Positions 37,232 to 49,854 of a stretch of DNA of 64,000 nt are shown in pieces. The stretch covers positions 3,744,001-3,808,000 of the forward strand of contig CM000153.2 in NCBI GenBank assembly GCA_000004695.1, given 5' to 3'. The notes under the pieces are model-generated. The model saw nothing but the letters and a program-made list of their open reading frames with translations, did not search any database and was not told the origin of the DNA. This DNA is from Dictyostelium discoideum (lineage: Eukaryota). Within the stretch, counting starts at the first letter, position 1; the number at the start of each line of letters is the position of its first letter. A program made the position numbers and the translations under genes.

Positions 37232-38967
37232 TTAATTATTGTTTTTATTTTTTTTATTATTATTAAAATTATTATTATTATTATTATTATTATTATTATT
37301 ATTATTATTATTATTATTATTATTATTATTATTATTATTATTATTATTATTATTAAAATTATTATTAAAATTATTGCTAAACATATTGGCAAAATAATCA
37401 TTATAATACATGAAATTTTCTGCCAAATTGTTATCAATTTCGCTACTGGTATTGGTTTTATAAAAATTACCACTTTTTTGATTATTTGGCTGATTGTTAT
37501 CGTAATAATTATTATGATTAAAATCATTGTTGTAGTTATAATTACCATCATAATCATTATCGTTGTCACAGTTGTAATTTTCGTTTTCATAAGTATCATT
37601 ATTATAATTAATGTTGTTAAAATTATTATTGTTATTATTATTATTATTATTATTATTATTATTATTATTATTATTATTATTATTATTATTATTATAATTA
37701 TTATAATTATTATTATTATTATTATTATAATTATTATTATTATTATTATTATTATTATTATAATTATTGTTATTATTATTATGATTAAAATTATTATTGA
37801 AGCTATTGCTGTTATAATTATTATTATCAATATAATTATTGCTATCATTATAATTATTGTTATCATTATAATTATTGCTGTTATCATTATAATAATTGCT
37901 ATTATCGTTATAATAGTTGCTATCATTATAATTATTGCTGTTATCATTATAATTATTGCTGTTATCATTATAATTATTGCTGTTATCATTATAATTATTG
38001 CTGTTATCATTATAATTATTGCTATTATCGTTATAATAGTTGCTATCATTATAATAATTGCTATTATCATTATAATTATTGCTGTTATCATTATAAATAT
38101 TGCTATCATCATTATAATTATTGCCACAGTCATTATCATTATCATTATCATTATCATTATCATTATCATTATCATTATCATTATCATTATCATTATAATT
38201 GTTATTGTTGTAATTATTACTAATGTTGTTGGTATTGCAATTATTAATATTATTATTATTATTATTATTATTATTATTATTATTATTATTATTATTATTA
38301 TTATTATTATTATTATTATTATTATTATTATTATTATTATTATTAATGCTCATATCCAAGTTACTATTGGTGTTATCATTACTATTTATATTACGTATTG
38401 TATTATTATTAATATTAATATTACTATTAATATTACTATTGCTATTAATATTACTATTACTATTACTATTACTATTACTATTACTATTACTATTACTATT
38501 ACTATTACTATTGCTATTGCTATTACTATCACCAAAGTTGTTAATGTTTGTATTGTCATTTATAGAGGTATAATTATTATTATTATTTTTAAAATTCATA
38601 GTGTTACTGTACTTGGCTATATCATTATATTTTTCAAACAATAATTCTAAACCTGTTATTAATTGAGTGAATGTTGGTCTATTTGAGCTATTTGGATCCC
38701 AACAACTATTAATAATTGAAGATATTTGCTCATCATGAAATATTGGATCTTTTAATGGTAGTCTTAAACCCTTTAAAATGTTTATTGGCTGCTCTAAAAA
38801 TCTTTTATCACTGAATGGCATTCTTTCAGACATAACTTCATAGAAAATCATTCCAAATGAGTAAACATCTGTAGATTTAGTATACTTTCCATTGGATAAC
38901 ATTTCAGTACTCATATAAGCAGGTGTTCCAACATTTGGTGTAAAGGAATTATGTCTTTCAGTAGATT
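37232..38967 (-). CDS. Receptor-like Ser/Thr kinase RLK-A, last exon (kinase subdomains VIII-XI, then an Asn/Asp/Ser/Tyr low-complexity tail of about 450 aa)
   Basis: GTPAYMSTE, DVYSFGMIFYEV and CW..P..RP motifs; TAG acceptor at 38968-38970. Confidence 0.8.
37830..38105. repeat. 21-bp tandem repeat (TGTTATCATTATAATTATTGC)n, about 12 copies, encoding a YNDNSNN heptad repeat in the RLK-A tail
   Basis: Direct tandem copies seen in the sequence. Confidence 0.85.
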
Positions 38968-39043
38968 CTATTTTTTTTTTAAAAAAAAAAACAATTAATA
39001 AATATTAAATAATTAAAATAATAATAGGATAGGGTTAATTTAC

Positions 39044-39192
39044 CTTTACCAGTACCAAAATCAGAGATTTTAGCACAAACTAAATTTTCAATATTATAAG
39101 AAGCCATTAATATATTTTCTGGTTTTAAATCACGATGAATAATATCATTTTCATGTAAATATTCTCCACCTTTTGCTATATCAATTAAATAT
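39044..39192 (-). CDS. RLK-A kinase exon (HRDLKPENIL catalytic loop and DFGTGK)
   Basis: CAG acceptor at 39193-39195 and GTAAAT donor at 39042-39043. Confidence 0.8.
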
Positions 39193-39293
39193 CTGGGAAA
39201 AAAAAAAAAAAAAAAAAAAAAAAAATTTAATATAAATATGAATAAAGAAAATAATATTATTTATAAAAAATTTAATAAAATTAAATTATTTAC

Positions 39294-39700
39294 CTTATCT
39301 TTTGAGGAATTGTTATTTTAATATCTTTTCTATGAATTAAATCATTTAATGTACCTAATGGATAAAATTCAGTAACAATACCAAAGTTTTGATTAAAGAA
39401 TAAACAACCAGTTAGCTTTACAATATTTGGATGTTCTAATTTATCCATTAAACTAACTTCCCTTTGAATTTCAAAATGATTAAAAGTACCAAGTCTAAAT
39501 AATTTAACGGCTATTGATTGTTCTCTCCATAATCCAGAATAAACTACACCAAATGTACCTTCAGCTATATATGATTTAAGTATAATTTCATCGAAATCTA
39601 GATTTGGTGATGATTCACCCTCTATATGGATATAAAGAAAAGTTGACCATTTACAACTTCCATCAAATGATTCTATACATACTCCAATCTTTTCTAAATA
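39294..39700 (-). CDS. RLK-A kinase exon (subdomains I-V: AEGTFGVVYSGLWREQSIAVK..HPNIVKL)
   Basis: TATAG acceptor at 39701-39705 and GTAAAT donor at 39292-39293. The three kinase exons total 2292 nt and stay in frame. Confidence 0.75.
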
Positions 39701-39821
39701 CTATAATTTAAAATTTAATAAAATTAATAAAATTTAATAAATCATAATTATTATTATTATTATTATTATTATTATTATTATTATTATTATTATTATTATT
39801 ATTATTATTATTTTTACTTAC

Positions 39822-49000: not shown

Positions 49001-49403
49001 TTTAATTTGATAAAGTTTATTAATATTATCTCCAGGAATACTTGAGAATGGTGGAGAAATCCGTAAAGTTGTTTTTGATAAAACCTGGGCTGAATAAATC
49101 AGTGGGTAATTACCAATAAGTGTTAAAGAACCACCCAATGCAAGAATACCTGGAAAGTAACCCATTGGATCAAGTGGAAATTTTGCGGGATTAATGATGT
49201 TTAAACTATTATATTCTTCAAGAGAGAAGAACAAAAGTCCTCTTTTAATTGTCACCGATCCACCTGGTAAAATAACTAATGAGTGGACCATAAAACTATA
49301 AATACTTTCTGGTATATATAATGAGCCCTCCACAAAAGTGTAAAAATAAAAAAATTTTCAAACATATCTGATTGCGGAAATACGCTAAGGGTCAAATTGG
49401 AAC
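46076..49403 (-). CDS. RLK-B ectodomain (about 900 aa, beta-helix-like repeats), TM and cytoplasmic Pro-rich exon
   Basis: ORF 46076..49333 (1085 aa). TM helix LLTIVLPICSAVVVASSVMLGRLFY followed by KKKFKKFK. A likely GTACAT donor at 46092-46093 is used instead of the in-frame stop at 46076. There is a 1-nt frame offset within the T-runs at 49335-49360 relative to the exon-2 phase. Confidence 0.7.
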
Positions 49404-49470
49404 CTATAAATAAATAATAAATGTTAAAAATAGTTTTAAAAAATATAGATTTATAAATTTATTACAATAC

Positions 49471-49689
49471 CTTTTGTAATTAAAAATTTATTTAATGTAA
49501 GATTAGCGTCTAGGAAAGTATAAAAAGTCATTAGATCACCTTCAGCGTTTGGCAATGCGCCAGCGCATATATCTGGATAATATAAATCTGCATCTGTTTG
49601 TGAAATATTATTTGATTCAATATTTGAATGTGGAAATCTTTTTATACGTTTTAAACCATAATAACCTGGTGGTGTTGTAATAGTTTCTT
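49471..49689 (-). CDS. RLK-B exon 2
   Basis: ETITTPPGYYGLKRIKRF..LYYPDICAGALPNAEG..; AAAAG acceptor and GTATTG donor. Confidence 0.55.
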
Positions 49690-49775
49690 CTTTTAAAAAT
49701 TTAAATATAAGTGTTTGATTTTTTTATTTTATTTTATTTATTTTATTTATTTATTTTTAAATTGCAATACTTTAC

Positions 49776-49854
49776 CATCTGCATTTGAATATAAAATAAA
49801 TATGGATAGAAATATTAATAGTATAATAGTCTTTTTAAAAAAGTTATTTTTCAT
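49776..49854 (-). CDS. RLK-B exon 1 (signal peptide MKNNFFKKTIILLIFLSIFILYSNAD)
   Basis: ATG at 49852-49854; GTAAAG donor at 49774-49775. Confidence 0.55.

Follow-up and report, generated by a model that had tools for sequence, protein, structure and literature searches.

The stretch of Dictyostelium discoideum DNA considered here (64,000 nt of contig CM000153.2, positions 3,744,001 to 3,808,000; hereafter the window) carries a chromosome-4 locus made up of gdt5 (DDB_G0285895), DDB_G0285893 and gdt3_ps, which belongs to the already known GDT (growth-differentiation transition) family of receptor-like kinases. The two kinase genes of this locus are very probably old members of the family that were disabled in the AX4-type lineage by three frameshifting insertions or deletions (indels) and by one deletion of about 3 kb. 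The family, its receptor-kinase architecture and the pseudogene status of gdt3 are all published (PMC1420674). Apparently not described in the literature are the origin of gdt5 and DDB_G0285893 of AX4 as likely remnants of a single ~3-kb deletion, the masked frameshift of gdt5, the intact state of gdt3, gdt5 and DDB_G0285893 in related genomes, and the G8-like/beta-helix N-terminal region that the GDT ectodomain seems to have in common with the DDB_G0285893 family. A search of the literature for gdt5, DDB_G0285895 or DDB_G0285893 found nothing relevant.

The window is AT-rich, includes poly-Asn and poly-Gln tracts, and its proteins are exact matches to proteins of D. discoideum AX4 chromosome 4. 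The gene models of gdt3 and gdt5 were rebuilt from GT..AG boundaries and homology, and signal peptides, recognised as hydrophobic N-termini, and transmembrane (TM) helices were read off the translations by eye. Both genes lie on the minus strand and display a common layout, namely a signal-peptide exon, a short exon containing LYYPDIC, an exon of ~3.3-3.4 kb that covers the all-beta ectodomain, a single TM helix and the cytoplasmic linker, and small 3' exons. A preliminary description made from the sequence alone had named them RLK-A (gdt3) and RLK-B (gdt5); both gene models, their motifs and TM helices, a gdt3 ectodomain spread over three frames and a 1085-amino acid (aa) open reading frame (ORF) in gdt5 are all present where it placed them. 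Its view of the two as paralogous receptor-like kinases from a single family, each crossing the membrane once, also holds. The gdt5 ORF and a repaired gdt3 match GDT proteins with E-values of 0 to 1e-103 over 56-100% of the query and have invariant motifs in common with them. Furthermore, both genes encode the conserved gdt_ex ectodomain, a signal peptide and one TM helix. A TKL-type (tyrosine kinase-like) kinase domain is found in gdt3 and in full in the gdt5 orthologues, whereas gdt5 of the window keeps only a relic of the N-lobe.

The locus was compared with those of four other Dictyostelium genomes, "D. discoideum" ACTFIW (L001), D. citrinum (L003), D. dimigraforme (L004) and "D. cf. discoideum" ACTFIY (L005), and with that of an independent chromosome-level assembly, ACTFIT (L002, GCA_054883475.1). 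The gene order is the same in all four other genomes (aminotransferase, sulfatase/phosphodiesterase, SPX-EXS protein, gdt5, convergent gene, gdt3), and in each of them gdt5, the convergent gene and gdt3 are full length. The three indels and the ~2.96-kb deletion described below are restricted to AX4-type sequence and absent from these four genomes.

The gdt3 pseudogene (Gdt3_ps, DDB0219954p; 37232..43680, minus strand), a GDT-family receptor-like TKL kinase gene delimited by the exon model and the published N-terminus, comprises six exons (43680-43623, 43562-43332, 43260-39822, 39700-39294, 39192-39044 and 38967-37232) defined by GT..AG boundaries and homology. In Table S2 of PMC1420674, the Gdt3_ps entry has the same N-terminus, MGLLLKVLILCLSINIFSKGNIIINTPKEYY..., as this gene, and the N-terminal sequence of RLK-A is printed there as MGLLLKVLILCLSINIFSKGNIIINTPKEYYNLNRIDKFQLFSGKPIDIDDNLNFQ; no protein entry for this gene was found in databases. 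Gdt3_ps is listed in that paper as a kinase pseudogene of the TKL/Gdt class, and what had been proposed as a possible, unusual lineage-specific sensing system is a published family. The ectodomain includes the motifs LYYPDIC, SGSNLIAQFGTEN (42467-42429) and CYAPCYN (42203-42183), all on the minus strand, and is followed by the TM helix LAIILPIVLVFVGFSIVFSLWFII (40818..40889, minus strand, from the translation) and by KRKKSRK. The kinase domain (38627..39601, minus strand, across two introns; in the repaired protein, Pfam PF07714 covers residues 1234-1483) is complete, with an E-value of 2.2e-50 for PK_Tyr_Ser-Thr and intact AEGTFGVVYSG, IAVK, HRDLKPEN (39137-39114), DFGTGK and GTPAYM motifs. 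This score and the published listing settle the classification called for by the preliminary description, gdt3 being a TKL/Gdt kinase. The protein would end in an Asn-rich low-complexity tail of ~450 aa (37232..38596, minus strand, ORF translation); this tail contains imperfect NDNSNNY-type repeats, and the other frames and the opposite strand give long poly-Ile and poly-Leu ORFs.

Exon 3 of gdt3 can be read through only by using three reading frames. Alignment of five genomes identified two lesions on the coding strand. The first, a 20-nt deletion relative to the four other genomes, lies between 42987 and 42986 and causes a frameshift, after which a TAA stop is read at 42979-42977. The second, at 42512-42506, inserts 7 nt whose coding-strand sequence is GGAATAC; it causes another frameshift and is not present in ACTFIY, ACTFIW, D. 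citrinum or D. dimigraforme. In the other genomes, the gdt3 ectodomain is an uninterrupted frame, matched by single tblastn high-scoring segment pairs at 74-91% identity without any stop. These orthologues were located by synteny, a word-indexed search with the repaired gdt3 having returned none of them. A 46-nt GT..AG 'intron' that would mend the first frameshift was rejected because it is below the 60-250 nt range of Dictyostelium introns (PMC1420674) and lies within coding sequence conserved in the orthologues.

The second kinase gene, gdt5 (45563..49854, minus strand, assigned to the GDT family by homology), is both truncated and frameshifted in the AX4-type lineage. Its homology-based exons (49854-49776, 49689-49471, 49403-46106, 46041-45955, 45896-45798 and 45730-45563) have joins that match those of the intact orthologue P0002. 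The 1085-aa ORF (49333-46076) is 100% identical to P0001, the 1176-aa protein of DDB_G0285895, whose UniRef name is "Growth-differentiation transition protein 5". The translation includes a TM helix, LLTIVLPICSAVVVASSVMLGRLF (46796..46867, minus strand), followed by YKKKFKKFK. The three short 3' exons are a relic of the kinase N-lobe, ...LAKNNVSSVYKGLYKKTTVVIK..., which ends at 45563; its last exon (45563..45730, minus strand) encodes a glycine-less P-loop, LAKNNVSSVYKG, and the VVIK of strand beta3, and ends nine codons beyond a deletion junction. In the four other genomes, the intact orthologues are 1561-1574 aa long and have a full kinase domain.

The five-genome alignment also reveals a 1-nt deletion in gdt5 (between 49336 and 49335, minus strand), which falls in the Cys codon of a near-invariant LCVEG motif. 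A stop is found downstream of it at 49278-49276, and the frameshift lies just upstream of the 1085-aa ORF. The AX4 gene model (P0001) hides this lesion within a 162-nt 'intron' (49470-49309, 22.8% G+C). The first 67 nt of this interval are a real intron (9% G+C), whereas the last 95 nt are coding-like (32.6% G+C) and are exon in every orthologue. The ACTFIT model (P0041, 1251 aa) skirts the lesion in a different way, and both bypasses drop the conserved C-x-E-G motif. The preliminary description had pointed to 42520-42540, 43000-43015 and 49335-49360 as suspect; these positions were slightly off, the true ones being 42512-42506 and the junctions 42987/42986 and 49336/49335.

The lack of glycines in the P-loop of gdt5 is another matter. 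It had been viewed as decay, but the LAKNxxSSVYKG loop (window 45632-45730) is conserved in five of the five intact gdt5 orthologues (P0002-P0006), which also retain the beta3 Lys (VVIK), the HRD motif (HCD in one genome) and DFG. Judging from these sequences, AX4 decay did not produce the glycine-less loop, which is ancestral in a clade of atypical or pseudo-kinases, and the gdt5 orthogroup may be a clade of atypical kinases or pseudokinases kept under purifying selection.

The loss of the gdt5 kinase can be traced to a single event. The breakpoints, mapped against the four genomes, meet between 45587 and 45586 and indicate that ~2955-2959 bp are missing. The collinear blastn alignment with the ACTFIW locus runs from window position 52000 to 45590, skips positions 14269-17232 of L001 and resumes at window position 45584. 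According to the fine mapping in the four genomes, the junction is clean and displays no obvious microhomology. The lost segment carried subdomains III-XI of the gdt5 kinase and the 3' two-thirds of the convergent gene DDB_G0285893. Past the junction, each frame reads a few codons antisense to the other gene: gdt5 passes from ...RDN into FYQLGYVIK and a stop, and DDB_G0285893 from ...LLHNQV into DKNYL and a stop. Therefore, the loss of the gdt5 kinase, the short 366-aa neighbour and the overlapping 3' ends all result from one ~2.96-kb deletion and not from gradual decay. The overlap of RLK-B with the 3' end of its neighbour, as noted in the preliminary description, is real.

The middle gene, DDB_G0285893 (44417..45603, plus strand; exons 44417-44465 and 44552-45603), matches P0028 exactly and encodes a 366-aa remnant of a secreted protein of ~1034 aa. 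Its orthologues (1032-1042 aa) end in a Ser/Thr-rich stalk and a hydrophobic tail resembling a glycosylphosphatidylinositol (GPI) signal. A phmmer search with this protein among 1.84 billion representatives found eight relatives, mostly of ~1000 aa, and no GDT protein. The link between this family and the GDT family is visible only at the profile-profile level: hhalign gives a probability of 96.5% and an E-value of 8.6e-10 over 348 columns, with ordered motif pairs (WDP..LSLGG.VT.G / IDPFGFFPGIL.LGGSLSL.G; YGTEQF / YGTENIQ; IDYiN.GIisTSPYS / MDYGNEGNGIYSiSPNI), and reversed and column-shuffled controls score 14-21 versus 93 for the real alignment. BLASTP of DDB_G0285893 against intact gdt5 gives 26.6 bits (E 0.004) between residues 102-206 and 87-200, a stretch that is exactly the N-terminal module proposed earlier to be common to the middle gene and its neighbours, so this proposal is borne out. 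By these profiles, the middle gene is part of a small family of its own, which has distant homology to the GDT ectodomain over the first ~400 residues of the latter.

The preliminary description had suggested hidden Markov model (HMM) searches of the ectodomain for known folds. With the three window proteins and Pfam at E <= 0.1, only the gdt3 kinase was found, and no G8, PbH1 or TIG domain; with the GDT proteins, no ectodomain family was matched. The only, weak, sign came from DDB_G0285893, whose match to Pfam G8 (PF10162; region ~44821-45144, plus strand) reaches 12.6 bits versus a 22.9-bit gathering cut-off (E 0.12) and spans profile positions 9-121 of 124; four of the eight members of its family also match G8 weakly, the best at E 4e-05. 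The module of DDB_G0285893, which stays below the gathering score, and that of the GDT proteins, none of which matches G8 at E <= 1, are thus only 'G8-like' as far as these profiles tell. No chain was matched by the ectodomain or by the DDB_G0285893-family profile in sequence searches against PDB. The gdt5 ectodomain (830 aa), modelled with AlphaFold2 from an alignment of 27 sequences, is all-beta in the prediction, with a mean pLDDT (predicted local distance difference test) of 69.7 and a pTM (predicted template modelling score) of 0.65. The model superposes on solved pectin-lyase-like right-handed parallel beta-helix proteins, and Foldseek finds local matches to CBM35-like jelly rolls with a TM score of ~0.5 normalised to the target. 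The beta-helix guess of the preliminary description is therefore supported at the level of the model, in which the ~800-aa GDT ectodomain would have a G8-like module at its N-terminus, then a right-handed parallel beta-helix and beta-sandwich domains, and next to the membrane a CBM35-like jelly roll. The predicted fold alone suggests that the ligand may be a glycan or polysaccharide. Two GDT members weakly match the Pfam HYDIN/CFA65/VesB-like immunoglobulin (Ig) domain (E 0.0017), and we suspect that this match falls in the conserved stretch that links TM helix and kinase (...FTFFNQTNTPLSVFFQFP...EIDITLICSTK) and appears Ig/MSP-like in sequence. The cytoplasmic juxtamembrane regions concerned lie at 39900-40200 in gdt3 and 46100-46300 in gdt5.

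These observations very probably reflect the following history. The genes gdt3 and gdt5 are old, non-sister members of the Dictyostelium-specific GDT family, type-I receptor-like kinases of the TKL group with a signal peptide, an ectodomain predicted to be all-beta, a single TM helix, a linker in the cytoplasm that includes a putative Ig-like region, and a TKL kinase. The ancestral locus would have carried gdt5 with its kinase (1561-1574 aa), a convergent gene for a G8-like surface protein of ~1034 aa, and gdt3. Two ectodomain indels would have turned gdt3 into the published pseudogene, a 1-nt deletion would have struck the gdt5 ectodomain, and the ~2.96-kb deletion would have joined gdt5 and DDB_G0285893 tail to tail, with loss of the gdt5 kinase and of most of the neighbour. 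Most likely, gdt3, gdt5 and DDB_G0285893 are all non-functional remnants in the AX4-type lineage.

Selection was estimated from Nei-Gojobori nonsynonymous (dN) and synonymous (dS) distances as three-taxon branch lengths with 200 bootstraps, the branches of ACTFIY and ACTFIW serving for comparison; for gdt3, the dN/dS ratio (omega) covers the sequence upstream of the kinase exons, the comparison loci ending before the kinase. Over the whole gdt5 ORF, omega is 0.56 on the AX4 branch (bootstrap 0.38-0.78), versus 0.29 and 0.39 on those of ACTFIY and ACTFIW, respectively, and the AX4-branch dN is roughly double the values on these two branches. For the TM helix together with the cytoplasmic part, which provides few sites, dN exceeds dS on the AX4 branch, versus omega values of 0.39 and 0.69. 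The AX4-branch values of gdt3 (0.25, versus 0.24 and 0.22) and DDB_G0285893 (0.35, versus 0.33 and 0.31) are no different from those of the intact orthologues, and the SPX-EXS control gives 0.02 (versus 0.06 and 0.04). As the omega of gdt3 is unchanged, its frameshifts would be very recent relative to the AX4 branch. Most likely, to judge by these ratios, the inactivation of gdt3 is very recent and gdt5 has been under relaxed constraint for part of the branch.

It is unlikely, but deserves weighing, that AX4 gdt5 is a functional kinase-less decoy or co-receptor of 1176 aa, spliced around the frameshift and signalling through a partner kinase. Its 1085-aa ORF has no internal stop, its omega of 0.56 stays below 1, and it is entered in databases as a protein. 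Kinase-less proteins made up solely of a GDT ectodomain do exist, since P0011, P0019, P0021 and P0039 (947-959 aa) occur in several Dictyostelium genomes and appear, from their sequences, to be a conserved kinase-less GDT branch (at least P0021 has a Thr/Pro-rich repeat tail at its end); the intact gdt5 orthologues, too, with their glycine-less P-loop, may be pseudokinases. However, the bypass intron holds 95 nt of coding-like sequence (33% G+C) that is exon in all orthologues, and its removal would delete the near-invariant C-x-E-G of the G8-like module. Annotation by introns of this type is described in PMC1420674 as a mask for pseudogenes, and the two gene predictions skirt the lesion in different ways. 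The doubled dN of the AX4 branch and the excess of dN over dS in the TM and cytoplasmic part also argue against a functional product.

The preliminary description had proposed that the two genes are recent tandem duplicates caught in reciprocal pseudogenisation, one keeping the kinase and the other the ectodomain. Its factual basis is sound, since gdt3 has an intact kinase and a broken ectodomain, gdt5 has a long ectodomain ORF and no kinase, and the five-genome alignments and the deletion mapping establish both that RLK-A is a frameshifted pseudogene and that RLK-B has lost its kinase; the model built on it is nevertheless very improbable. The pair is old: the ectodomains of gdt3 and gdt5 are 51% identical (787-column alignment), whereas each gene is 75-93% identical to its own orthologues, and a neighbour-joining tree places them in separate, non-sister orthogroups. 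In the first ~400 aa from the N-terminus, gdt3 has 52% identity to Gdt2 (sequence from the kinome table), the gene of which is located elsewhere in the genome, versus 38% to gdt5. The synteny in other Dictyostelium that was suggested as a check speaks against recent duplication, both kinases being in place in D. citrinum, D. dimigraforme and the two divergent discoideum-like genomes, and the comparison indicates that the tandem arrangement is older than the divergence of all five genomes. Nor is the decay complementary: the N-terminal ectodomain is frameshifted in both genes, at LCVEG in gdt5, so that neither gene retains an intact half with which to complement the other, and the kinase loss is a by-product of the deletion that also destroyed the neighbouring gene.

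An origin of the frameshifts and of the truncation in sequencing or assembly errors is scarcely credible: the AX4 reference does contain some errors, four kinase genes having been corrected in PMC1420674, but two lesions, being indels of 20 nt and 7 nt, are not homopolymer slips, and sequencing error is excluded because ACTFIT, which over 20.6 kb has 99.69% identity to the window, carries the same three frameshift indels and deletion junction, its differences (6 mismatches and 13 gaps) all lying in or adjoining intergenic or intronic A/T homopolymer runs.

Several points weigh against a locus disabled in the AX4-type lineage as set out above. ACTFIT may be the same strain as AX4 or a near-clonal one and is then silent on natural populations, and synonymous divergence from the nearest intact genomes is ~10-16%, too much to date the lesions. 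A functional gdt5 mRNA spliced through the annotated 162-nt intron might be formed, and its product would still have a signal peptide and a TM helix, with most of the ectodomain between them. Furthermore, the rise in gdt5 dN/dS is modest, with a bootstrap interval that overlaps those of the intact orthologues. As regards the ectodomain, Pfam G8 has no match in the GDT proteins themselves at E <= 1, and the fold assignment comes from a medium-confidence model built on 27 Dictyostelium sequences.

The disabled locus can be placed among known systems. The Dictyostelium kinome includes nine TKL receptor kinases (PMC1420674), and in the GDT family (Gdt1, Gdt2, Gdt4, Gdt6, Gdt8, Gdt9 and Gdt3_ps), RLK-A corresponds to Gdt3_ps and RLK-B to gdt5, with the same architecture; the motifs of P0024 match Gdt9 of the kinome tables. 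Degenerate kinases comparable to the gdt5 clade also occur in Gdt1 and Gdt6, both marked inactive (PMC1420674). AX4-type gdt5 and gdt3 differ from these members in being kinase-less through deletion and frameshifted, respectively. The DRK receptor kinases (rk1-rk3 / VSK) are likewise single-pass, Dictyostelium-specific TKL receptor kinases (PMC1420674) but have unrelated ectodomains (drk_ex, TIG) and belong to another kinase subfamily (Dicty4/DRK). The same survey counted 15 kinase pseudogenes, the lesions of which were masked in automated annotation by introns or truncated ORFs; gdt5 resembles these (Figure 6 of PMC1420674), with a frameshift concealed by an intron that is too long and with an ORF that stops short at the 3' end. 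Unlike them, it was outside the survey, presumably for want of a recognisable kinase domain, and is still listed as a protein. A structural likeness links the GDT proteins to the G8/PbH1 beta-helix surface proteins, in which a ~110-aa N-terminal module precedes a right-handed beta-helix (predicted by the model in the case of GDT), but no GDT protein scores in Pfam G8, DDB_G0285893 is sub-threshold and no PDB sequence was matched. The G8-domain surface proteins include CEMIP, TMEM2 and PKHD1.

The value of these results is mainly one of annotation, as gdt5 and DDB_G0285893, entered as ordinary AX4 proteins, appear to be deletion remnants. They are also relevant for work on GDT signalling in AX4, gdt3 and gdt5 being full length in related genomes. 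The view of receptor kinases outside plants and animals is unchanged because descriptions of the GDT family date from 2000 to 2006. A role in the growth-differentiation transition is known for Gdt1 and Gdt2 only, both of which hold back the switch into development (PMC8262924, PMC1420674), and Gdt4 is implicated in the polyphosphate response (PMC8262924). The common GDT ectodomain presumably detects an external signal of starvation or density, and the predicted folds (G8-like module, beta-helix and CBM-like jelly roll) would suggest a glycan-type ligand. Since Gdt1 and Gdt2 restrain this switch, altered developmental timing is conceivable; we nevertheless consider it unlikely that the ancestral lineage of the laboratory strain AX4 recently lost three adjacent surface genes, for two GDT receptors and a G8-like protein, perhaps with an effect on when starvation triggers development relative to kin with intact copies, or that truncated gdt5 persists as a deletion-made decoy receptor.

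Some observations concern the neighbourhood and the relatives of the locus. The ACTFIW orthologue of DDB_G0285893 (L001 15198-18375) has only 75.7% nucleotide identity, versus 86-90% in its flanks, and a branch dS of 0.39 versus 0.05-0.15; gene conversion from a paralogue or an unusually fast evolution of this surface protein are possible explanations. In the ACTFIY genome only, a gene encoding a 435-aa protein with a DDE_1 transposase domain lies between the DDB_G0285893 orthologue and gdt3 (L005 18714-20052, minus strand). The neighbouring SPX-EXS gene (50131-53177, minus strand) contains a long poly-Gln tract and, with an omega of 0.02, is under very strong constraint. AX4 differs from ACTFIW and ACTFIY, both labelled discoideum or cf. 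discoideum, by a pairwise gdt5 dS of ~0.14-0.16, and even the highly constrained SPX-EXS gene (50996-53177) gives a dS of ~0.05-0.08 per branch among the three. The three genomes would therefore be species-level relatives, and by these distances the divergence of AX4 from ACTFIW and ACTFIY is at the level of cryptic species.

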